A stretch of DNA of 64,000 bases from Candidatus Woesebacteria bacterium (GCA_013374835.1 CP055307.1:660768-724767), one strand, 5' to 3'. Positions 48,765 through 62,160 are shown, counted from the stretch's first letter. Notes: generated by a model from the sequence alone, not told the origin. Translations and numbers: made by a program.

Positions 48765-49400
48765 ATGAAACTAATTAAAAAATTAATTTCTTTATCCCTT
48801 GTTGGAGTAGTGCTAATTTTGTGCTTAATGATAAGCGTGGTTGTATATGCAAATAGCGCTGAAATTTTTTCTAAAAAGGATATAGTATTTGCTAATGCCT
48901 TGACTTCATACCCAGAGTTACCAATTGCAGAAAAACATCTTTTTGTTTTACCCAACAGCGATCCAAATTTATCTGGAAATTTGATTGGCGATTTTGGAAA
49001 ACCAATCTCGCTTAATATTCCCTCAATAAGAAGAAAACTTGAGATAGTACCTGCAATAGTTAGAGAGAACACTCTTCTGGTTAGACCAAATAATGGACAC
49101 TTTTTGGTTCGTTTTGATGAAAAAGCTGTAAAAGACTTTCTAATTTATTTAAATAAATCATGGAGAACATTGCCTTCTCCTGAGGATATAAAAAGGGATA
49201 CAAATTTATATATCGATACGAACAGAAAGTGGAGATATGTATTTAAAATAGAAGAAATTGTCAGCCTTACGGAAGACAGTATTTTTGTGATCCCCGACAA
49301 CAAAACTACAAATTTAATTTTAATAATTAATTATCCTCTTGATAGAAAATTTTTAATCGTTAGAGCGGGATATAGAACCGTTGTACCAATAGAAAAATAA
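48765..49400 (+). CDS. membrane-anchored hypothetical protein (first gene of cassette)
   Basis: 211 aa; N-terminal TM; no catalytic motif recognised. Confidence 0.4.
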   Translation: MKLIKKLISLSLVGVVLILCLMISVVVYANSAEIFSKKDIVFANALTSYPELPIAEKHLFVLPNSDPNLSGNLIGDFGKPISLNIPSIRRKLEIVPAIVRENTLLVRPNNGHFLVRFDEKAVKDFLIYLNKSWRTLPSPEDIKRDTNLYIDTNRKWRYVFKIEEIVSLTEDSIFVIPDNKTTNLILIINYPLDRKFLIVRAGYRTVVPIEK

Positions 49401-49404
49401 TAAA

Positions 49405-50622
49405 ATGGAGTGGTTTATTACACTGAGAAATATAGCATTTTTATTTGCTACATTAATGCTTATAAAGTATTTTGTATTTTTGGTGATTGCTCCTTTTTAT
49501 ACTGTTAAGGAAAAAATTAGGTTTGAACGTATCAAGAGAAGAATGTCAGTTCCGTATAAGCCGTTGGTCTCAATTGTTATTCCTGCGTGGAACGAAGAGA
49601 TTGGGATCAAAAAAAGCATTCTCTCACTTGTTACAAATACTTATAAGAAGATTGAAATAATCGTAATTAATGATGGCTCCACTGATAGGACCGAAGAAGC
49701 TGTTAAAAGTATTAAAGATAGAAGGTTAAGATACTTTAAAAAAGAAAATGGGGGCAAGGGGACTGCTCTTAACTTAGGGGTAAACAAAGCAAAGGGAGAA
49801 ATAATTGTTACAATGGATGCTGATTCTGCTTTTGATAAACAAGCTATAGAAAATCTGATTAAATATTTTAGGGATGACTCAATCATGGCTGTGGTTGGTA
49901 ATGTAAAAATAGCCGGAGGGAAAGGCCTAATTGCCTATATTCAAAAGTTAGAATATAAATTTGGATTCTATTTCAAGAGGGCTCATGCTGTAATGGGAGC
50001 CGAGTACATATTTGGTGGAGCTTGCAGTGCATTTCGGAGAGAAGTTTTTGAGAAATTAGGGGGATTTGATATAGACAATAAAACTGAAGACATAGAGATG
50101 TCGATGAGAATGCGATTCAATGGAATGAAGTGTACGTTTGCATCTGATGTTATCTGTTACACAGAAGGAGCTAGCAGTATTATGGGTCTAGCCAATCAAA
50201 GACTAAGGTGGAAAAAGGGAAGATTTGATACTTTTATAAAATACAGAAGACTATTTATGTCGCTTGACAGACGACATAATAAGTTTTTGAGTTGGTTTGT
50301 TCTTCCTTATGCATTACTATCTGAGCTACAACTTTTATTTGAGCCAATTGCCCTGACCTTGTTACTTGCATACAGTTTTATATCGGGAGACTATTTGTCT
50401 CTGGCTATTGGAAGTTTGTTTATTATGATAATTTATTTTGTTGAATCTTTTTGGGTTGATGGAATTAAACCTTGGTTTTGGTTAACTTTCTTTTTTACAT
50501 GGCCGCTTTTTTATTTTTTGGTATGGATTGAATATTTAGCTTTAATAAAAGGATTTTTTATGATATTAAGGGGGGACGATATAAAATGGCAAAGATGGAA
50601 TAGAGTAGGAGTATCAATATGA
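49405..50622 (+). CDS. processive family-2 glycosyltransferase (PgaC/IcaA/NodC/cellulose-synthase-like beta-glycan synthase)
   Basis: N-terminal TM; GT-A motifs VSIVIPAWNEE, DGSTDRT, TMDADS; QRLRWKKG (QxxRW processivity motif); C-terminal TM helices; 405 aa. Confidence 0.75.
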   Translation: MEWFITLRNIAFLFATLMLIKYFVFLVIAPFYTVKEKIRFERIKRRMSVPYKPLVSIVIPAWNEEIGIKKSILSLVTNTYKKIEIIVINDGSTDRTEEAVKSIKDRRLRYFKKENGGKGTALNLGVNKAKGEIIVTMDADSAFDKQAIENLIKYFRDDSIMAVVGNVKIAGGKGLIAYIQKLEYKFGFYFKRAHAVMGAEYIFGGACSAFRREVFEKLGGFDIDNKTEDIEMSMRMRFNGMKCTFASDVICYTEGASSIMGLANQRLRWKKGRFDTFIKYRRLFMSLDRRHNKFLSWFVLPYALLSELQLLFEPIALTLLLAYSFISGDYLSLAIGSLFIMIIYFVESFWVDGIKPWFWLTFFFTWPLFYFLVWIEYLALIKGFFMILRGDDIKWQRWNRVGVSI

Positions 50623-51847: not shown

Positions 51848-51984
51848 AGAATGGCTTCTTAGCAAAAAGAACTCAAAAAAATAAGTTTCAATAAAGAAAA
51901 TTTGCTATAATTATTAAGTACTTGCGGGTATAGTTGAAAGGTCCAACGACTCCCTTCCAAGGAGTAAATCGGGGTTCGATTCCC
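51848..51984 (+). repeat. 137-bp direct repeat, right copy (leads into the intact tRNA-Gly)
   Basis: See left copy. Confidence 0.85.
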
Positions 51985-51993
51985 CGTACCCGC
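51924..51993 (+). tRNA. tRNA-Gly (anticodon TCC), intact
   Basis: GCGGGTATAGTTGAAAGGTCCAACGACTCCCTTCCAAGGAGTAAATCGGGGTTCGATTCCCCGTACCCGCT; all stems close. Confidence 0.85.
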
Positions 51994-52102
51994 TCCCAAA
52001 GTGGAAATCTATCTATAAATTGTTAGCCTAGCTAGATAGTATTGAAAAATCGCTCAAAGATAAATTTTCAAAAAATGGTGTTATGATGATAAAAAAGAGT
52101 TT

Positions 52103-54376
52103 TTGTGTTTGATGGGAAAAATAACCCTTAAAATTTTATTTGTTTCTCTCTTAATTTCCTCTTGGCTTTTTGCTGGATGGCCGAGAATTTGGCAAAAGCC
52201 ACCAATTCCACCGGCTATTCGTAAAGCTAAGGCAGCGCAGGTAACGATTGATAATTCGATACACACCACTTCTACAAGTCACCTCGATAGTTCACCATCT
52301 ACAGTGTTTATTTCAGAAACTAATGGTTATACTTTTTATCGCGATAGCGGAGGTCAATGTGTTTACAGCAAAACCACAAATGGCGGGACAAGCTGGGGAA
52401 CAGCAGTGACTGTTGATTCTCAGACTGACTGTTTGCAAATTGCTGTCTGGTATGATCGCTGGACACCGGGGGATAATACTGGAACGTTAATCCATTTTGT
52501 GACTTTTGATTCTGGTGATGATGATATTTGGTATGGCTATTTAGATATCTCAAACAATGACTCACTTGCAACTCCAATTAATATCACATCTGGATTAGGT
52601 TATTCGGGCACTCTAGCTGTTGGCACAAACCACACTACCATCACCAAAGGCACGGACGGCGTGCTCTATGCGGCTGTGTCGGATGCTAATGGTACGGGCA
52701 ATATAATGGCCCGTTGTAGCTCAACCTGCACCACAGCAACCAACTGGGCAGTGTCTCAACCAGCATCATGGACTGCTGGTAATGACTATTTAATCTTGGT
52801 ACCTATGCTCTCTGACAAAATAATGCTTCTCTGGTGGGATATTTCATTAGGATCAAATGATATTAAATATTCTATCTGGGATGGTTCTTCTTGGTCGACT
52901 TTTGCTGCCATTGATACAGCTTTAGATAATGCTATTTATGACGCATCATGGGGTGCTGCGATTGACCCATCAACTGGAGATGTGTATTTGGCTTACGCTG
53001 CAAACGCGACTACTTTAGGAACGGACGACAGTATTCGGGTAAAAAAATACACGAGTAGCTGGTCATCCTTGACCGATGTAGTAACCAATAGCGCCTGTGC
53101 CGGCGTTTCAAACTGCGGCATTACCGGAGTTAAAATAGCGATGGACACGACGAGCGGCGACTTGTATGTCCTTTATTCGGCACAGTCAACTCCTGGCACC
53201 GCCACAACTGCTAATGTCTATTTCAAAAAATCAACCGACGGCGGCTCAACCTGGAGTTCAGAATTGGGTCCGGTCTATTCCACAAACGACGATATTTACG
53301 GCGCGCGCTTGAGCTTGTCCGATTCCGCGGGCATCCAGAGAATTTACGCTACTTGGTACGCGGCAACACCGGACGATTTATTCGGCCGGCCGATTGCGCC
53401 CTTAACGTTCAACCAATCTGCGTATCGGTTTTTTAATAATTCAGACTCAACTGATGTTGGTACACCTTTGGCGGTACAGAACACAGAGGCAACTTTGGGC
53501 TCGACCAACGCGGCGTTTCGCTTGAGGATTCTCTTGCATGTCGGAGTTTCTGACTTGTTTACGAGTGAACAGAGTTTCAAACTCCAATTTGCTCAACAAT
53601 CGGGAACGTGCGACACCGGATTTTCCGGAGAGACCTACGCTGATGTTACGACCTCAACCGTGATTGCCTACAACGACAACGCCACGCCTGATGACGGCGA
53701 CAACTTGACTACGAACACCAACGACCCGACACACGACGTTGATACCATTGTCAATCAAACTTACGAAGAATTAAATAATTTTACCAACTCCGTGGCGGCT
53801 ATTAACTCGGGTCAGGACGGCAAATGGGATTTTTCTCTCAAAGACAATAACGCTCCAGCCGAAACCACTTATTGTTTGCGGGTGGTCAAATCCGACGGCA
53901 CGGTTCTGGATACTTACACCGTAATTCCGCAAGTTACCACCGCTAGTTCGGCAACAATTTCTGTTTCTGTTTCCGATGGAAACGTTGCTTATGGGATTAT
54001 TCCTAAGGACACCTCAAAAACTACTCTTGCTTCTGATATGCCACCTTCAGGGGATATGCAAACGGTTAGTTATGATACCAATGTAACGGTTAATATCAAC
54101 ATTAAGGGTAGCGACGCTTCGGGTGGGGGTTGTACTTGGGTATTGGCGGGTACCAATGGTAACGATCAATATGTTCATCAATTTTGCAACGCCACCGATA
54201 ATAATTGTTCAAGTCCGCCAACAAATTATACCGCTTTAACAAGCGGTTATCAGACATTAAAAAGCGGAGTTTCTGGTCAGGGAACAGTGGATTTCCATTT
54301 GCGAATAACTATGCCCACCGAATCAAGTTGTTATGGCGAACAATCAATTAATGTGACTATTCAAGCAGCTCAATAA
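52103..54376 (+). CDS. large secreted BNR/Asp-box repeat (sialidase-like beta-propeller) protein with a C-terminal WxL-like domain
   Basis: N-terminal signal/TM; multiple SxDxGxTW Asp-box motifs (TTNGGTSWG, STDGGSTWS); C-terminal ~150 aa homologous to ORF 55580-56125; 757 aa; middle third markedly GC-rich. Confidence 0.6.
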   Translation: MCLMGKITLKILFVSLLISSWLFAGWPRIWQKPPIPPAIRKAKAAQVTIDNSIHTTSTSHLDSSPSTVFISETNGYTFYRDSGGQCVYSKTTNGGTSWGTAVTVDSQTDCLQIAVWYDRWTPGDNTGTLIHFVTFDSGDDDIWYGYLDISNNDSLATPINITSGLGYSGTLAVGTNHTTITKGTDGVLYAAVSDANGTGNIMARCSSTCTTATNWAVSQPASWTAGNDYLILVPMLSDKIMLLWWDISLGSNDIKYSIWDGSSWSTFAAIDTALDNAIYDASWGAAIDPSTGDVYLAYAANATTLGTDDSIRVKKYTSSWSSLTDVVTNSACAGVSNCGITGVKIAMDTTSGDLYVLYSAQSTPGTATTANVYFKKSTDGGSTWSSELGPVYSTNDDIYGARLSLSDSAGIQRIYATWYAATPDDLFGRPIAPLTFNQSAYRFFNNSDSTDVGTPLAVQNTEATLGSTNAAFRLRILLHVGVSDLFTSEQSFKLQFAQQSGTCDTGFSGETYADVTTSTVIAYNDNATPDDGDNLTTNTNDPTHDVDTIVNQTYEELNNFTNSVAAINSGQDGKWDFSLKDNNAPAETTYCLRVVKSDGTVLDTYTVIPQVTTASSATISVSVSDGNVAYGIIPKDTSKTTLASDMPPSGDMQTVSYDTNVTVNINIKGSDASGGGCTWVLAGTNGNDQYVHQFCNATDNNCSSPPTNYTALTSGYQTLKSGVSGQGTVDFHLRITMPTESSCYGEQSINVTIQAAQ

Positions 54377-54389
54377 ATTTTTTATGACT

Positions 54390-55504
54390 TGACATGCACA
54401 GGATCAGATACATATTCGACATTGAGTAAGCATGGCAAGATCCACTGGGGTAAGCATGAAATCTGAGTTTGTAATGGGTAAAATCAAGAATTCCAAGGAG
54501 GTGATGAACTTGATTTCCCATCTGAGAAGATTTGATCAAAGTGAGGTGGCCCAGGAAAGACTAAGAATAATTAAGTATTATGCCAAACATGGAGAGGTTG
54601 CCACAAAAGAGGCCTTTGGAGTAGATCGCAAGCTTATCTTCACCTGGAAGAAAAGAGTACTAGAGAGAAAGAGTATCCAGGGGTTAGTTCCAGACTCCAC
54701 AGCTCCAAGGGGGGTAAGAAGGTCAGTAGTGGATCCTAAAATTGTTGATTATATTAAATCCCAAAGAGAGTTTGTCCCCAGAATGAGCAAGAAGAAGCTT
54801 AAACCCTTACTTGATGCATACTGCAGAGAAAATAATCTCCTAACAGTATCAGAGGCTACCATTGGGAGGATTATCTCAAGAAACAATCTATTTTATTACA
54901 AAACAGGCAGAGTATACCACAATCCAGCCTCTAAATGGGCTCAAAACAAGACTAAGAGCAAGAAGAACAGAATTAAATATGCACCCAAACCAGAAACTCT
55001 GGGATACATCCAAGCTGATACTGTGGAGAAAATCATTGATGGCATTAGGTGGTATATGTACCAGGCAATTGATGTGAAGGGAAAGTCTGCCCTTTCCCTG
55101 ACCTACAAACACTTAAATTCAGTTAACACTGTGGACTTCTTCAAGAAATTCCAAACACTTATTCCCTACAAAATCCACACAGTCCAGACTGACAATGGTA
55201 AAGAGTTTCTCAAACAATTCAGGGTTTACCTAGAAAAACAAAACATCAAACACATTTTTATATACCCCAGAATGTCCAAGATCCAGGGGGTGGTAGAGCG
55301 CTTCAACAGGACCATCCAGGAAGATTTTATTGACCCCAACCTCCACCTTATCTACAACCAGAAAGCTTACAATCAACGTCTTGCAAAGTACCTGATATAC
55401 TACAACTGCCAGAGAGTACATGAATCCCTAGGTAATATGACACCAACAGACTATCTCATCCAGGAAGGAGGTATGTCGAATATGTTACGATCCTGTACAT
55501 GACA
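54390..55504 (+). mobile_element. insertion sequence (~1.1 kb) with single DDE transposase and 32-33-bp imperfect terminal inverted repeats; IS481/IS30-like
   Basis: IRL TGACATGCACAGGATCAGATACATATTCGACAT (54390-54422) vs reverse complement of IRR TGTCATGTACAGGATCGTAACATATTCGACAT (55473-55504), ~28/33 matches; possible 4-bp ATGA flanking duplication. Confidence 0.75.
54432..55502 (+). CDS. DDE transposase (rve/integrase-core with N-terminal HTH)
   Basis: D (YIQADTVEK), D (VQTDNGKEF), E (ERFNRTIQEDF) triad; C-terminal YNCQRVHESLGNMTP; 356 aa. Confidence 0.8.
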   Translation: MARSTGVSMKSEFVMGKIKNSKEVMNLISHLRRFDQSEVAQERLRIIKYYAKHGEVATKEAFGVDRKLIFTWKKRVLERKSIQGLVPDSTAPRGVRRSVVDPKIVDYIKSQREFVPRMSKKKLKPLLDAYCRENNLLTVSEATIGRIISRNNLFYYKTGRVYHNPASKWAQNKTKSKKNRIKYAPKPETLGYIQADTVEKIIDGIRWYMYQAIDVKGKSALSLTYKHLNSVNTVDFFKKFQTLIPYKIHTVQTDNGKEFLKQFRVYLEKQNIKHIFIYPRMSKIQGVVERFNRTIQEDFIDPNLHLIYNQKAYNQRLAKYLIYYNCQRVHESLGNMTPTDYLIQEGGMSNMLRSCT

Positions 55505-55579
55505 ATGAAAAAAATATTTTAGTAAAGTTAAAAATAGCTAATATGAATAAAAATATGGATACCAAGGAAGCAAAATATT

Positions 55580-56125
55580 TTGAGAGGGGGTGAAGATGTG
55601 TTTAAAAGAATTTTAATATCTTTTGCTTTGATGATTCTTTTGGGTGGTAATTTTTGGTTTGAAGTAATGGCAGCTGACACCGGCGATGTGACGGCAACGG
55701 TAACAGTACAAAATGTAGCAATTACAGTTTCCGACGGTGCCATTGCCTATGGCACTTTAGCTGCTGGAGGAACCAGAAGTACATTACCAAGCGAGGCTAA
55801 TGACATGCAAGTTGCCACCAATACCGGTAATGTTCAAGAGGATTTTAACATTAAAGGATATAACGTTTCTTCTGGCTGTAGTTGGACACTTGGCGCAACC
55901 CAAGACTCTGAACAGTATTTTCATAAATTTTGTAATGATACGGCCAATGATTGTTCAACACCACCAACTAATTATAATGCCTTAACTACAAATTACCAAA
56001 CTCTAAGTTCAGCTGTACCGACTAGTGGTGCTAGAGATTTTCAATTACAGATTGGTGTTCCATCTTCAACTTCTTGTACATCTGAAGCAACCATAACAGT
56101 TACAGTTCAAGCTGTTGCTAGTTAA
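55580..56125 (+). CDS. secreted protein consisting of a WxL-like beta-sandwich domain (paralog of the BNR protein C-terminus)
   Basis: Signal peptide; ~40% identity to 54000-54376 translation (VSDG.IAYG ... NIKG...GCSWTL ... DQY.H.FCN.T.N.CS.PPTNY.ALT..YQTL); 181 aa. Confidence 0.5.
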   Translation: MRGGEDVFKRILISFALMILLGGNFWFEVMAADTGDVTATVTVQNVAITVSDGAIAYGTLAAGGTRSTLPSEANDMQVATNTGNVQEDFNIKGYNVSSGCSWTLGATQDSEQYFHKFCNDTANDCSTPPTNYNALTTNYQTLSSAVPTSGARDFQLQIGVPSSTSCTSEATITVTVQAVAS

Positions 56126-56165
56126 GATTATTGCCAAGATTTTATATGAGTGATAGAGTTTTATT

Positions 56166-56780
56166 ATGAGAAAGACTTTATTTTTTGTGATTTTTTTAAC
56201 TTTTTTCGTTTTTCCACTTCCGGTTTTTTCCAATCTTGGAGTAGGTGTTGCTACCGGAAAAATTGTGGTTGAAGACAAACTCAGACCAGGGATGATTTAT
56301 AATCTTCCTCCGTTGACAGTATTAAACACAGGCGACGAGGAAGCAGAATATGAGGCGGGTGTGGCTTATCACGAGAAGCAATCAGAACTTCAGCCGAATG
56401 AAAAATGGTTTGATTTTTCTCCAAAAAAATTCTTTCTTAAACCAGGTGAAAGTCAGAAAGTAGAAATCAAATTAAATTTACCAGTTAGAGCTGAACCCGG
56501 CGATTATTTCGCTTATTTGGAGGGTAAACCATTGAAAAAATCAGAATCAGGTAAATCAACAATAGGAATAGCTGCAGCGGCTAAGCTTTACTTTACTGTT
56601 TTACCGGCTAACCCAATTTTGGGAGCTTATTATAAAGCAGTGTCTCTTTGGAAAATTAACCAGCCCTGGTCCGCACGTTTTGCGATAATTATCGGAGTAG
56701 CTATTCTTTATTCCTTACTAAATAGATTCTTAGGATTTCAAATCAGCTTTGGCAAAAAAAAAGAAAAAAAGAATGAATGA
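56166..56780 (+). CDS. cell-surface protein with N-terminal signal peptide, Ig/PapD-like middle and C-terminal TM anchor with basic tail (CscA/DUF916-like architecture)
   Basis: 204 aa; signal; C-terminal TM IIIGVAILYSLL followed by KKKEKKNE. Confidence 0.35.
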   Translation: MRKTLFFVIFLTFFVFPLPVFSNLGVGVATGKIVVEDKLRPGMIYNLPPLTVLNTGDEEAEYEAGVAYHEKQSELQPNEKWFDFSPKKFFLKPGESQKVEIKLNLPVRAEPGDYFAYLEGKPLKKSESGKSTIGIAAAAKLYFTVLPANPILGAYYKAVSLWKINQPWSARFAIIIGVAILYSLLNRFLGFQISFGKKKEKKNE

Positions 56781-57409
56781 AATGGGTAGGATCATTTTTT
56801 TTTATACTTATTCTCGCCTTGCTTTTTAAAGGTTTTACCTTTGTTCAGGGGATTTCTTTTCAAGATTTAGAGGCAACCATTAAAATTAGTGTTTGTGGCG
56901 ACGGAAAAATTGAAGGCGATGAGAATTGCGAGGGAGATAATTTAAATAACCAAACTTGTGAAAGTTTAGGCTATGGTTCTGGTACCTTAACTTGCGATAT
57001 TGCCTGCAGTTTTGATACTTACGGCTGCTTACCCGCTCCAACAACTACTCCTACACCATTTTCTTCTACCCATCAAACTATTCCCCAATCTGACACAACC
57101 ACGTCTAGTTTAATTTCAAGTCTGGCACCAACACCCTTTTTTTATTCTACTCCGAAACGAACCGTCTCCCTTCCGCAGGCAATAATTCCTTTTGACACTA
57201 ATTGTGATAATATAATTGAAATAAGTGAACTTTTTGAAAGCGTCAGAGATTGGGTTGATAGCTGGATAATTAAAACGAGTAAATCAATTATTCGAAGAGA
57301 AACCAGCAAAAAAACAAGATGTGGTTTAATTCAAGATTGTGATTTAAACCGTGATAATGAGTGTAATATAGTCGATTTTTCAATACTTATGTATTACGTA
57401 AAGATATAA
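56777..57409 (+). CDS. secreted Cys-rich protein with Thr/Pro-rich linker and two dockerin-like Ca-binding-type repeats
   Basis: Signal peptide; CGDGKIEGDENCEGD; T/P/S linker; DTNCDNIIEISELFESVRDWV and DCDLNRDNECNIVDFSILMYYV resemble dockerin repeats; 210 aa. Confidence 0.35.
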   Translation: MKWVGSFFFILILALLFKGFTFVQGISFQDLEATIKISVCGDGKIEGDENCEGDNLNNQTCESLGYGSGTLTCDIACSFDTYGCLPAPTTTPTPFSSTHQTIPQSDTTTSSLISSLAPTPFFYSTPKRTVSLPQAIIPFDTNCDNIIEISELFESVRDWVDSWIIKTSKSIIRRETSKKTRCGLIQDCDLNRDNECNIVDFSILMYYVKI

Positions 57410-57410
57410 A

Positions 57411-58403
57411 ATGAAAAAACTCGCTATTTTCACTTTTCTTCTAAAGATTATTGGCTTTATTATTGCCTCTTGGTTTTTGGTTCATATCTTGTCTATTTTT
57501 GGAGTCTTTTTGGCATTAGCTTACCCTCTTTGGTATCTTTTTGGATTTAAGAGAATTCCTTGTTTATGGTGTCAAATTAAAAAGGCGCAATTTTGTACTT
57601 TTTCTCATAGTATTTTCGATTCTGGCTTGATTTTGGTTTTTACTTTGTTTTCTCTTGGCTTAGTTTTTGCTGAAGCAAAAATTATTTTCAAAATGGGTTT
57701 TCCACCAACAGCTAAAACAGTTTCTTTTGTTATTCCCACTAAGGGTCAATACCGATTAGGTGAAATCTTTCCAATGAAGATCGAAATATCTGGGGTTAAA
57801 ACCCCTATTAATGCCGTTCAAGCTGATTTGGGTTTTGACTCTAAAAAAATTCAGATTGTTGACATATCAACCAATGAATCGTTTGCAAATATATTTATTC
57901 AGAAAGAAATCAATAATGAAGTTGGTTATGCCCGATTGACCGGTGGTTTGCCAAATCCTGGTTTTTTTTCAGAACATGGAGTTTTTGGTTCTGTTTTTTT
58001 TAAGGGCATAACACCAGGAATTGTACAAATTAAGTTTCTGCCCTCTTCAATGGTTTTAGCAAATGACGGTCGAGGCAGTAATGTATTAAAGGATTTGGCA
58101 TCTGCTTCTTATTTGATTTTACCTGAAAAATTGTCTCAAGAGGAAGAAGAGATTCAAAAAAGTATTATTTTGAAACCAAATGTTTTGGGGGAAAGTAACG
58201 AAAACACTAAAATGAAGTTTTATGAAGAGAAAGGAGTTTTAGGAACGCAGGTTGTAAAAGACATCGAAAAAGTGAAAAAATTTGACTTAGGTAAAAAAAT
58301 ATTAGAAATTTTGGAAAAAATTGATCGGTTTATTTTATCTTTGTGGGCAAGGTTAACTGGATTAACGTCATCTTTTTTTACTTCGCGTTTCTACCGGGCA
58401 TAA
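57411..58403 (+). CDS. membrane protein with cohesin-like extracellular domain
   Basis: Three N-terminal TM helices, then VSFVIPTKGQYRLGEIFPMKIEISGVKTPINAVQADLGFDSKKIQIVDIS...GVFGSVFFKGITPGIVQIKF, a cohesin-like pattern; 330 aa. Confidence 0.35.
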   Translation: MKKLAIFTFLLKIIGFIIASWFLVHILSIFGVFLALAYPLWYLFGFKRIPCLWCQIKKAQFCTFSHSIFDSGLILVFTLFSLGLVFAEAKIIFKMGFPPTAKTVSFVIPTKGQYRLGEIFPMKIEISGVKTPINAVQADLGFDSKKIQIVDISTNESFANIFIQKEINNEVGYARLTGGLPNPGFFSEHGVFGSVFFKGITPGIVQIKFLPSSMVLANDGRGSNVLKDLASASYLILPEKLSQEEEEIQKSIILKPNVLGESNENTKMKFYEEKGVLGTQVVKDIEKVKKFDLGKKILEILEKIDRFILSLWARLTGLTSSFFTSRFYRA

Positions 58404-58516: not shown

Positions 58517-58591
58517 GCCCCGTTAGTTCAACGGATAGAACAAATCCCTTCTAAGGATTAGATGGGGGTTCGATTCCCTCACGGGGCACCA
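58517..58591 (+). tRNA. tRNA-Arg (anticodon TCT), CCA encoded
   Basis: GCCCCGTTAGTTCAACGGATAGAACAAATCCCTTCTAAGGATTAGATGGGGGTTCGATTCCCTCACGGGGCACCA. Confidence 0.85.
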
Positions 58592-58667
58592 GGGCCCGTA
58601 GCTCAGTGGCCAGAGCAGTCGGCTCTTAACCGAATGGTCGGAGGTTCGAATCCTCCCGGGCTCACCA
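58592..58667 (+). tRNA. tRNA-Lys (anticodon CTT), CCA encoded; starts directly after the CCA of tRNA-Arg
   Basis: GGGCCCGTAGCTCAGTGGCCAGAGCAGTCGGCTCTTAACCGAATGGTCGGAGGTTCGAATCCTCCCGGGCTCACCA. Confidence 0.8.
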
Positions 58668-59307: not shown

Positions 59308-62160
59308 ATGATAGACAATAACGAACAACTAGGTTTCTCTGAACAAGAAGTATTAAAAGAAAAGGCTTTAAAACTTTCTTCAAAATATACAGAGGTCATT
59401 AAGCGGATAACCGATACATCGGTTTACAAAGACGAAAATACTGGGCATTTCAGATTAACAACCGATGGTAGGCAAAATGCACACGAAATCTTTGATGACT
59501 TTTTTAAGCAGGCAGGTGGAAATCACCAACTTCTAAGACTAGCGGTGGACAGTGCTTATAAAACAGTTAAGTCTGATATTCAACAAAGCAGAGAAGAAGA
59601 AAAGCTTGATGAGCGTGGGTGGGCGTTATTAAGAACCGTACAAAGCATACAAGGAGTGAATACTTGGCAGGAAGCAAATGAAGTTTACTCAAGGATGGTT
59701 GGTCAAGCCGCCAAAGAGCAGGGCCTTTCCGCCGCTCGGCTATATCAAAAAGCAAAGGAAATAAGAGAACGACTTGAATCTGAGGGTATATCGGTTGATG
59801 AATATTTAAGAAAAGATAAAGAAAAATTTGATAATGTTCTCATAACCGAAACTGAAAAACTTGATAACGAAACAGTAACACTGCTAGGCAAAGCAAGAAA
59901 AAAGTTAGAGGAATTTAAACAAAAAGTTAGCGGTTGGCTTCCCAAAAAGCAGAAAGACAGACAACCCCAGATAGAAACCCGTGATATTACTCCAGAGGAA
60001 GAAGTTCCAGCTTTGCTTAGAAAAAAAATGACTCGCAGGCAATTCTTGAAATTTGCGGGGGCAACGGGAGCAGTAATTGTGCTGGAGCCTATCATTAGGG
60101 TGGGATTAGACCCTGAATTTCAAGCGGGACTTAGAGCTGCTTCTACCCGCCCTGAAATGCCAGGTAGTGGAGAGAGACACGAGGTTTCCTTGTCAACTTT
60201 ACTTGAAGTTTACAGAAAACATTTTAAGGGAAGGGAACATTTGCTCCCAGAAAGGGTTTGGGTAAGGACAGAAGGAGAAGGTGCAGATGAAAAACTAAGA
60301 GGGACAGGCACGCATCTTGGCATTCTTGCCAACCAATATTACGAGTCTGAAAAAAGAGGGGGGGAAGATTTTGACACCTACTACAAACGCTTCGTAGACA
60401 GCTTTCACGATTTGTCAGATACTGCTGGGCTTGACTTCATCACCCTAGTAACCAGTTTGCAAATTAGTGCTGAAAATATTGCTGGTTATGAAGAGCCCAA
60501 AGGCCCATCGAATATTGATGTTAATGTATCTCGTATTCAAGAAGTGGGAATAACTGCTGCACGAGCACTGGGACTAGAGTCTGCTATGGTTGAATCATTA
60601 GGTATAGGTGGACTTGCGTCTCAAATTAGAAACGAAGCTGAAAGGAGGGGTATTACAACGCCTCTGGAGGGTGCTATACCTAAGGAAGGCATAAGGCATT
60701 ACGATTTAATAAGATTAAGAGAACAGCCAACCACGGGTTTAATGGACTTCGAGCCAGGTGGTCGTGCAGAGGCTTTTATTTCGTTCCAAAACAATCCTTT
60801 AAGCGAAATGCTACGAAGAGAATATCCTCAAGTTTGCGAAAAATACGATAGAGCACACGAAAGGCGTGAGGAAGTTTCAGCAATAAGGGGAGAAATGGAG
60901 TCAGCTGCAAACGACTTTATTGAAAGACACGAAGACACTCTTAGACCATTTGCGGAAGGAAATGAAGAGGCTCTTAATGCAATCGGAATTTCACCCAATA
61001 TGGATTTGTGGCAACTAATAAACTATACAGATGTTTGGTATAAGGTCTCTGAAATACCAACTAACCCTGAATTTGCCTACCAACGAACAGTTGAATATAT
61101 AAAAAAAGAAGCGACTAAAGACCCACGAGCTTTCTATAAAAGATTATTTTCTCAGCAAATTAGAAATCCAAGATTTCTAAACTATTTAATGGATCACTCA
61201 ATCTCAAACAACGACCAAGAAGAAGGCTCGGCTGTATCCAATATCCAAAACCTTGTAACAGAATACGAGCAGAAGGCAAAGAATTTAAGGATTGCCCATC
61301 TTAATATTTTAGAAGCAGAAGGAAGGTTTGAATACGACAGCAGATTTCAACAAGCAACAAGTGTTTTAGTAACCAAAAAACTCTCTGATACAGCGGGAAA
61401 GTTTAACCCAAACAGCAGAGACAGCCTTGGCTGGCATATCTATAAAACTTGTGCAGCCAGAGAAATAGCCCCTATCCCCTTTTTGGTAGACGAACAGCCA
61501 TTCGCTTGCGACATAACAATTGACCCACCTTATGCACCAGAGGCAACCATAGAATCATTAGATACTTTTGCAAGGATGTTACAAGAAGCTGGGATACTTG
61601 AAACAGCTCCAGACAGAAATATAAATGCGTTCTATAGCACTATGGAGAAAATGTTCTGGCGAGATGGGGGTGTGTGGTTTGGAGCAGAACCCACAGAAGA
61701 AGAACAAACAAAATGGAAAAAAATATTAAACCACTTTAATGAAAAGTTGGCTAACCGTTTATTTTATGACTTTGCAGGACTACTTCACGATGAGCAAAAA
61801 ATGAGTGAGTTAAATAAAATAATGATGAACAAAGGACTTATTTCCGAACCCGCCAATAAAGACCCTTATAATTTTTTCACCCAGTTTGTTTATTTAGCAT
61901 TAAATAGTAGACATATGCGCCGAAATATTTCAGATGCTGATTGGAATGAAGCAGAGAGGTATTTTCAAGATAATATAATGCCCATGGTCATTACCAGAGA
62001 AGAAGTTTCACCTGGGGTTTTTAGGGAAAAATGGAACATAGGCTCTGCTGACTATCCTCCAATATTCCGTTCACAAGCAGTAATGTATAATTTCCTTATT
62101 GACCAAAACCCAGAATCACCATCATCAACACCATCAAGTGAGGTGCTAGGACACCATTAG
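59308..62160 (+). CDS. large hypothetical protein (ORFan) with internal Tat-like motif and TM helix
   Basis: 950 aa; residues ~243-265 MTRRQFLKFAGATGAVIVLEP resemble a Tat signal but are internal; no catalytic motif; GC content visibly above local background. Confidence 0.45.
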   Translation: MIDNNEQLGFSEQEVLKEKALKLSSKYTEVIKRITDTSVYKDENTGHFRLTTDGRQNAHEIFDDFFKQAGGNHQLLRLAVDSAYKTVKSDIQQSREEEKLDERGWALLRTVQSIQGVNTWQEANEVYSRMVGQAAKEQGLSAARLYQKAKEIRERLESEGISVDEYLRKDKEKFDNVLITETEKLDNETVTLLGKARKKLEEFKQKVSGWLPKKQKDRQPQIETRDITPEEEVPALLRKKMTRRQFLKFAGATGAVIVLEPIIRVGLDPEFQAGLRAASTRPEMPGSGERHEVSLSTLLEVYRKHFKGREHLLPERVWVRTEGEGADEKLRGTGTHLGILANQYYESEKRGGEDFDTYYKRFVDSFHDLSDTAGLDFITLVTSLQISAENIAGYEEPKGPSNIDVNVSRIQEVGITAARALGLESAMVESLGIGGLASQIRNEAERRGITTPLEGAIPKEGIRHYDLIRLREQPTTGLMDFEPGGRAEAFISFQNNPLSEMLRREYPQVCEKYDRAHERREEVSAIRGEMESAANDFIERHEDTLRPFAEGNEEALNAIGISPNMDLWQLINYTDVWYKVSEIPTNPEFAYQRTVEYIKKEATKDPRAFYKRLFSQQIRNPRFLNYLMDHSISNNDQEEGSAVSNIQNLVTEYEQKAKNLRIAHLNILEAEGRFEYDSRFQQATSVLVTKKLSDTAGKFNPNSRDSLGWHIYKTCAAREIAPIPFLVDEQPFACDITIDPPYAPEATIESLDTFARMLQEAGILETAPDRNINAFYSTMEKMFWRDGGVWFGAEPTEEEQTKWKKILNHFNEKLANRLFYDFAGLLHDEQKMSELNKIMMNKGLISEPANKDPYNFFTQFVYLALNSRHMRRNISDADWNEAERYFQDNIMPMVITREEVSPGVFREKWNIGSADYPPIFRSQAVMYNFLIDQNPESPSSTPSSEVLGHH

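Follow-up and report, generated by a model that had tools for sequence, protein, structure and literature searches.

Bacteria of the Candidate Phyla Radiation (CPR, or Patescibacteria) are tiny, and those that have been studied are attached to host cells, an attachment that is largely unexplained. Here we analyze a five-gene locus (genes A to E) from a Candidatus Woesebacteria bacterium, located in a stretch of 64,000 nucleotides (GCA_013374835.1 CP055307.1:660768-724767) that is referred to as the window and in which positions are counted from the first letter. The five genes form a conserved surface-display cassette that is widespread in CPR, and we put at roughly 0.5 the probability that this cassette builds a surface fibre or an adhesin complex that has swappable heads and is assembled by strand complementation in the absence of an usher.

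Closest described systems

Chaperone-usher pili (Fim, Pap, Csu, CFA/I) need a two-domain soluble periplasmic PapD-like chaperone together with an outer-membrane usher. The Pam pilus of Ca. Mycosynbacter amalyticus, a cultured CPR bacterium of the Saccharimonadia, is described in a June 2026 preprint as a pilus assembled by donor-strand exchange from Sec-exported immunoglobulin (Ig)-like subunits that are encoded in a compact operon, without an usher, with PapD-like chaperones that a C-terminal transmembrane (TM) helix anchors in the membrane, and with a tip subunit that has no donor strand (10.64898/2026.03.03.709456). Its pilins have two domains, an N-terminal sandwich that is followed by a linker strand and an Ig domain at the C-terminus, and the preprint makes no mention of cohesin or dockerin (10.64898/2026.03.03.709456). 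In the WxL (Csc) gene clusters, the WxL domain has two W-x-L motifs on adjacent strands, the second of them near the C-terminus (PMC9772566), and AlphaFold2 (AF2) predicts that a strand of the partner protein WxLIP completes the WxL sandwich (PMC10599100, PMC9772566).

The cassette of the window encodes proteins with counterparts in these systems, along with two proteins, D and E, that carry a dockerin-like module and a cohesin-like domain. Its features are the following:

52103-54376 (ATG at 52112), plus strand: gene A, large secreted adhesin-type protein of 757 aa, whose weakly BNR-like head and stalk lie between a leader and a pilin-like domain at the C-terminus
52175-52234, plus strand: leader motif GWPxxWQxPxIPPxxxxAxA of A, residues 25-44, seen in A-type proteins only
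53957-54373, plus strand: C-terminal pilin-like domain of A, residues 619-757, a paralog of B without the N-terminal extension of B
55580-56125, plus strand: gene B, small secreted pilin-like subunit of 181 aa, in which an Ig-like domain comes after a signal peptide and an N-terminal extension
55688-55714, plus strand: N-terminal extension VTATVTVQN of B, residues 37-45, candidate donor strand
56166-56780, plus strand: gene C, membrane-tethered PapD-like (Ig-like) protein of 204 aa, candidate chaperone and/or anchor
56235-56270, plus strand: N-terminal strand LGVGVATGKIVV of C, residues 24-35, candidate complementing strand
56661-56777, plus strand: TM helix and basic tail at the C-terminus of C, from the AF2 helix and hydropathy
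56777-57409, plus strand: gene D, secreted Cys-rich protein of 210 aa, with a dockerin-like module at the C-terminus, after a Pro/Thr linker
57170-57406, plus strand: dockerin-like module of D with a pair of F-hand repeats, FDTNCDNIIEISE...W and CDLNRDNECNIVDFSILMYY, from the alignment of orthologues and from Pfam and PDB profile matches
57411-58403, plus strand: gene E, membrane protein of 330 aa, in which N-terminal hydrophobic segments with a CxxC loop are followed by a cohesin-like domain outside the cytoplasm and by an amphipathic segment at the C-terminus
57717-58145, plus strand: cohesin-like domain of E, about residues 103-245, from a Pfam match and the profile alignment to 4ums

Compared by description, the Pam pilus would be the closest system in mechanism. 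It shares with the cassette the occurrence in CPR bacteria, a TM-anchored PapD-like protein, a tip subunit without a donor strand and the lack of an usher. In contrast to the two-domain Pam pilins, B consists of one domain, of about 15 kDa, and bears an N-terminal strand. Similarly, C has one domain as opposed to two in PamC and PamD. The tip protein PamT is a bare domain, whereas the heads of A are large and variable. The Pam anchor is the RbmA-like PamR; the cassette contains a cohesin-dockerin pair and no FnIII-FnIII-TM protein. No Pam pilin was among the PDB Foldseek matches of B.

The likeness to chaperone-usher pili lies in the predicted pilin-like Ig fold and the N-terminal amphipathic extension of B, in A, which like FimH and PapG has a C-terminal pilin domain without a donor strand, and in the PapD-like partner; this class also dominates the top Foldseek matches of B. 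However, there is neither an usher nor an outer membrane, and no usher-sized gene was found in the cassette at any locus examined. Protein C is single-domain and membrane-anchored, no significant sequence similarity was detected for B, and for C there were only sub-threshold PapD_N matches.

Conservation of the cassette in CPR

Homologues of B (192 matches) and C (649 matches) come almost entirely from CPR bins, among them WS6, Daviesbacteria, Levybacteria, WWE3, Minisyncoccales and the 'Patescibacteria group', and carry no Pfam annotation. Seven loci were fetched separately (from WS6, Daviesbacteria, Minisyncoccales and others), and all seven contain the complete set A-B-C-D-E in the same order, except that A is divergently transcribed in L006. 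In L012, one small open reading frame (ORF) lies between A and B, which adjoin each other in the other fetched loci. A second sample consisted of 80 metagenome loci anchored on C, with counts limited to loci with enough flank. In these, B is directly upstream of C in 60 of 61 testable loci. Downstream, D was counted in 55 of 56 loci, and 42 of 44 have E. A large A-type protein, recognized by the domain it shares with B, occurs in 14 of 14, and the full set of five in 21 of 22. An earlier note on this DNA, made from the sequence of the window alone, had suggested that the locus could be a modular surface-display system, and these counts support a real, conserved cassette of this kind.

The gene caller missed D in L001, where the gene is present, because of its Pro/Thr linker. 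Genes C and D, as well as D and E, overlap or abut, so co-transcription of C, D and E is likely. The genes that flank the cassette vary between loci, and the five genes therefore appear to relocate as one unit.

The domain shared by A and B

Residues 619-755 of A and residues 46-178 of B align over 137 aa with 46% identity and 66% positives (E=4e-38), so that the C-terminus of A and B are, judged by sequence similarity, paralogs, at an identity slightly above the ~40% given in the earlier note. The two blocks that had been singled out there, NIKG...C(S/T)W.L and FCN.T.N.CS.PPTNY.ALT..YQTL, are real and conserved family-wide in 60 sequences. Among these 60 B homologues, W102 is invariant, and L104, H115, F117, C118, C125, P129, L135, T136, Y139 and L142 are conserved in at least 90%.

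The AF2 model of the B monomer (predicted local distance difference test score, pLDDT, of 92) is a single domain, a nine-strand Ig-like sandwich that comes after residues 25-47, to which DSSP assigns no strand. Its best Foldseek matches in the PDB are mostly chaperone-usher pilins, namely FimG, FimA, FimF, PapE, PapA, PapH, CS17 and FimI, and the pilin domains of CsuE and PapG are also among the top matches. These matches are weak, with probabilities of up to 0.99 but E-values from 4e-3 to 0.1 and TM-scores of 0.3-0.5, and the B profile had no match among PDB sequences at E<=10. Matches of B to Nis1, DUF4074 and the NCBIfam family FimC (E=0.089) were too weak and were taken as noise.

An exhaustive hidden Markov model search with the shared domain, run on representative sequences at 50% clustering, returned 1548 representatives, 906 of them at E<=1e-10 and 271 at E<=1e-30. 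The best 150 of the 1548 were aligned with hmmalign and compared by column counts; they comprise 86 stand-alone proteins of about 165-190 aa and 64 large proteins of 211-2893 aa, which have the domain at their very C-terminus. The segment VTATVT(V/A)QN directly precedes the first strand of the domain in all 86 small representatives, with a mean of 6.66 identities out of 9, whereas VTATVTVQN is absent from all 64 large ones, which have a mean of 1.23 of 9. In the small proteins, the profile positions V30, T33 and V34 of this N-terminal strand are 94-96% conserved. The segment is amphipathic, V/A alternating with T/Q, and in B it is far more conserved than the remainder of the protein, which shows about 50% identity across the family. 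In the large proteins of the metagenome loci, the shared domain ends at most 5 residues from the C-terminus in 49 of 49 cases. By analogy, a donor strand on the small proteins and an acceptor domain alone on the large ones would be the pattern of chaperone-usher and Pam pili, and the predicted fold of B likewise points to a domain similar to that of pilins, preceded by a donor strand.

Protein C

According to its AF2 model (mean pLDDT 81), C consists of a signal helix (residues 2-15), a beta-sandwich (22-145), an amphipathic helix (150-164) and a TM helix (166-189). The hydropathy profile shows hydrophobic segments at residues 2-29 and 167-191, and the protein ends in the basic tail FGKKKEKKNE, all of which agrees with the signal peptide, C-terminal TM segment and basic tail previously ascribed to it. 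The sandwich is predicted to be one Ig-like domain with a PapD-like fold. Pfam searches with 59 C-family members gave weak matches to PapD_N, NPCBM_assoc, fn3_5 and HYDIN-Ig, with PapD_N sub-threshold in 9 of the 59, and the C profile found only spurious TPR matches among PDB sequences.

The mature N-terminus of C, IGVGVGTGKI.V, is among the most conserved segments of the family. In the 59 sequences, G25, V26, G27 and G31 are invariant, and V28, K32, I33 and V35 are conserved in at least 90%; the same pattern is kept in 69 metagenome orthologues. The AF2 model renders this segment as a beta-hairpin of lower confidence. It is plausible that it serves as a complementing strand.

Relation to the WxL loci

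By motif resemblance, the earlier note had likened the shared domain to the WxL domain and the architecture of C to that of CscA/DUF916 proteins. Neither A nor B has a match to the Pfam WxL family (PF13731) at E<=1, nor does any of 60 family members at E<=0.1, and neither DUF916 nor DUF3324 is among the top 20 Pfam families for C or for the 59 C-family members. For profile comparison, 68 genuine WxL loci were collected from Lactobacillales and Bacillales through a genome scan for the DUF916 motif NQIDKxxxYFDLK, and 56 small WxL proteins with the matching WxLIP proteins from these loci served as input to hhalign. The B family aligned with the WxL proteins over 33 columns, which cover the signal peptide only (probability 43%). 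The C profile aligned with WxLIP over 73 columns inside the DUF916 domain (probability 81%), and C lacks the NQIDKxxxYFDLK motif and has one beta-sandwich (22-145), not two tandem Ig domains. The only conserved W-x-L of the B family is W102-x-L104. The second motif, which the earlier note called degenerated, is absent, as the C-terminal strand (V)TVTVQAVA has no Trp. Thus, judged from sequence and profile comparison, WxL homology of the shared domain is not supported, and the resemblance of the cassette to WxL/Csc loci appears to be one of layout only.

In layout the comparison is apt, and it is the part of the proposed Csc-like character of the locus that holds. As in the WxL/Csc loci of Lactobacillales and Bacillales, a small protein is paired with a large one that always has their common domain at its C-terminus and variable binding domains at its N-terminus, and the Ig-like partner has a C-terminal TM helix. 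Insertion of a partner strand into the shared domain, predicted for WxL, is a further parallel. The differences include, besides the lack of a sequence or profile relation between B and WxL and the one W-x-L of B against two, the single Ig domain of C as opposed to two in WxLIP (DUF916-DUF3324-TM), the missing LPXTG partner, the dockerin-cohesin pair and the assignment to another phylum. The WxL clusters of Firmicutes and the CPR cassette seem to have reached the same arrangement of small protein, large protein and Ig anchor, be it through convergence or through very distant ancestry.

Proteins D and E

Protein D has a signal peptide, six invariant Cys residues between positions 40 and 84, a Pro/Thr linker and two Ca-loop repeats. 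The Cys block resembles the myxococcal cysteine-rich acidic repeat (TIGR02232, E=0.022). The two F-hand-like repeats, FDTNCDNIIEISE and CDLNRDNECNIVDFSILMYY, correspond to the pair of D-x-N-x-D-x-x-x-N/I-x-x-D/E loops that is visible in all D orthologues. A dockerin on D, as predicted in the earlier note, is recognized by Pfam in the family, with Dockerin_1 (PF00404) matching 6 of 7 orthologues (best E-value 1.2e-5; EF-hand matches were obtained too), but the copy in the window remains below the cutoff (12.6 bits vs 22.9). The PDB matches of the D profile are dockerins, but also calmodulin-type EF-hands.

For E, the picture is similar. The protein has hydrophobic segments at residues 1-46 and 67-93, a CxxC...C loop between them and then a cohesin-like domain. 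The Pfam Cohesin family (PF00963) matches 7 of 8 E orthologues (best 6.7e-8), and precomputed Cohesin annotations exist for the orthologues of L011 and L012; the copy of the window falls just short of the cutoff (23.4 bits vs 24.1, E=7.7e-5), with a match that starts at residue 106. The only PDB match of the E profile, through profile positions 120-235, is the cellulosomal anchoring scaffoldin B (4ums, E=0.13). Columns P109, G112, F120, N134, F142, G178, G179, P181, P183 and G184 are invariant. Most E orthologues have two CxxC pairs, zinc-ribbon-like and with one DZR_2 match, in the loop between the hydrophobic segments; E of the window and of L001 lack the segment of ~16 residues that holds the second pair (57411-57700).

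At the level of families, these sequence matches make D and E a credible cohesin-dockerin pair, and what ties the two together in the cassette is adjacency and co-occurrence (55 of 56 loci with D, 42 of 44 with E). As in non-cellulosomal cohesin-dockerin systems, adjacent genes encode a cohesin-like domain and a duplicated F-hand module. In the cassette, however, there is a single cohesin, carried by a polytopic membrane protein that has a CxxC loop, and the dockerin belongs to a small Cys-rich, enzyme-free protein amid pilin and chaperone genes. The mature N-terminus of D, ATVKISVCG, resembles the candidate donor strand of B, which suggests a possible role of D as a cap through which the fibre would be docked to E. 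Some loci encode two tandem cohesin-type E paralogues (L012, 12817-14809; L160, 8674-11327), and in D of L012 the dockerin repeats occur as two pairs, so that duplication of the docking module is possible.

Heads and leader of protein A

A large protein that ends in the shared domain is encoded at all seven fetched loci, and the metagenome loci contributed 49 more. Their heads are diverse, including Gly_rich_2, fn3, DUF7483, DUF2341, Ig_Rha78A_N, cohesin and BNR-like domains, and are mostly unannotated. The BNR propeller previously assigned to A of the window is a weak label: a Pfam BNR_2 match is present but below threshold (23.9 bits vs a cutoff of 31.4, E=3.1e-5), together with 2-3 Asp-box-like motifs at residues 91, 260 and 377, and sequence comparison of the head with the PDB found nothing, including no sialidase.

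The leader GWPxxWQxPxIPPxxxxAxA, which comes after a hydrophobic segment, is common to the A proteins of the window, L001, L008 and L012. In 63 large proteins it emerges as the majority consensus, and B, C and D do not have it. Beyond this leader, the N-terminal part of A from L012 has no similarity to A of the window. A segment of the two proteins that is 64% identical overlaps the part of A with high GC content at third codon positions (GC3), which is 0.53-0.59 in codons 301-600 as compared to a window median of 0.31 (standard deviation 0.04) and to 0.24-0.28 in B-E. The mosaic GC3 and the patchy similarity to L012 suggest recombination or transfer of adhesin segments.

Possible assembly of the cassette proteins and alternatives

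If the cassette builds a strand-complemented fibre or adhesin complex, all five proteins would be exported by Sec. Protein B would be the repeating subunit, with its Ig-like pilin domain and a VTATVTVQN strand that would insert in the groove of the preceding subunit (donor-strand exchange), and from this pattern we infer polymerisation. Protein A would be the distal, acceptor-only subunit: it ends in a pilin domain, lacks the donor strand, and has a variable head that would bind receptors. Protein C, a single PapD-like Ig domain held on the outer side of the membrane by its C-terminal helix, would act as a chaperone that caps and presents subunits through IGVGVGTGKI, and it perhaps also holds the base of the fibre. 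The dockerin of D would bind the cohesin of E in the membrane, and the resulting docking point, fixed in the membrane, may serve as the anchor or as the end of the fibre. Several points weigh against this assembly. The donor-strand contact and the open groove in B are presumed, the models being those of the B and C monomers. C has one Ig domain, as opposed to two in PapD, FimC, PamC and PamD, and D and E are tied to B by co-occurrence alone. In a more far-reaching version, which we consider doubtful, the cassette would represent an undescribed, CPR-wide class of pili, with a single-domain pilin of 15 kDa, donor-strand exchange, a one-domain tethered PapD-like chaperone and interchangeable tip adhesins, in which D would give its strand ATVKISV to the last pilin and plug into the cohesin of E.

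The main rival is a non-polymeric platform similar to that of WxL/Csc loci, in which one A and one B would sit side by side on the envelope, each stabilised by a strand of C as a membrane- or wall-associated Ig protein, with the head of A pointing outward and D/E as a second docking module. Such a platform would fit the gene layout, which matches that of published WxL clusters (a small protein, a large protein with a C-terminal domain, an Ig-TM protein; PMC10599100, PMC9772566), as well as the hhalign probability of 81% between C and DUF916 and the W-x-L motif that is invariant in the B family. We nevertheless regard it as unlikely, given that hhalign relates B to the 56 WxL proteins through the signal peptide only, that Pfam finds no WxL domain in 60 B-family members and neither DUF916 nor DUF3324 among its top 20 families for 59 C-family members, that there is no second W-x-L and only one Ig domain in C instead of two, and that the nearest folds of B are polymerising pilins. 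A 1:1 arrangement would also leave the near-invariant N-terminal strand, found on B only, without explanation. Self-assembly of B outside the cell into a chaperone-free matrix fibre, as in TasA, archaeal bundling pili or cannulae, with C, D and E as unrelated envelope proteins that only anchor or regulate it, appears less probable still. It accounts poorly for the position of C directly downstream of B in 60 of 61 loci and for the PapD-like fold and extremely conserved N-terminal strand of C; moreover, no Peptidase_M73/TasA match was found by Pfam and no SipW-type peptidase gene in the cassette, and Foldseek places chaperone-usher pilins above TasA-like proteins for B. The cohesin and dockerin matches and the weak BNR_2 match of A would be compatible with enzyme display similar to a miniature cellulosome, with E as a one-cohesin scaffoldin, D as a dockerin adaptor and A as a sialidase-type glycoside hydrolase for substrate capture. 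This is very improbable: D has no catalytic domain and A no dockerin, the head of A is replaced by unrelated non-enzymatic domains at other loci, the BNR match is under the Pfam cutoff with no PDB sialidase found by sequence, and B and C would be left unexplained.

Whatever it builds, the cassette is common in CPR and combines a constant stem with adhesin heads that vary greatly. Should the product be the strand-complemented fibre, CPR would have, beside Pam, a second type of donor-strand pilus that works without an usher, and the cassette would offer a direct handle on host recognition, with the heads of A as specificity determinants whose exchange is suggested by the mosaic GC3. It would also provide the first functional context for cohesin-dockerin pairs in CPR. 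The more far-reaching version would unite chaperone-pilin strand exchange and cellulosome-type docking, two assembly principles that, to our knowledge, have not been seen in one machine.

Insertion sequence and flanking genes

The region contains six genes, all on the plus strand, in the order A, IS481 transposase, B, C, D and E. The sixth gene belongs to an insertion sequence:

54375-55519, plus strand: IS481-family insertion sequence in the A-B spacer, with the transposase ORF at 54432-55502

The transposase gene, which the earlier note does not mention, is complete and matches the NCBIfam IS481 family (E=3.8e-44) and also Pfam rve_3 and rve; imperfect terminal inverted repeats of the element are located at 54375-54422 and 55473-55519. 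The spacer between A and B, 1.2 kb in the window, is about 50-110 bp in L001, L008 and L011, and no homologue of the transposase was found in any of the other fetched loci, so the element is a secondary insertion that lies outside the system. Short public contigs with identical B-E genes (L003-L005) stop just upstream of B, as expected if the element is repeated in the genome. The insertion may uncouple A from the transcription of B-E.

An Rfam search detected tRNAs only, and tRNA genes at 51924-51994 and 58517-58664 bracket the cassette. A scan of 51.8-59 kb for promoters and terminators gave results no better than shuffled sequences. Upstream, a 211-aa membrane-anchored protein (48765-49400) has a weak match to class D sortases (E=0.048) and a sortase-like 'IPSI' motif, and contains no cysteine; it is followed downstream by a GT2 glycosyltransferase (49405-50622) and a 400-aa protein without a family match. 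On the other side of the cassette, a protein of 950 aa (59308-62160) has a motif similar to a twin-arginine signal at internal residues 242-259 (TIGR01409, E=7e-4), far from its annotated N-terminus, which could reflect a mis-called start or an internal membrane segment.

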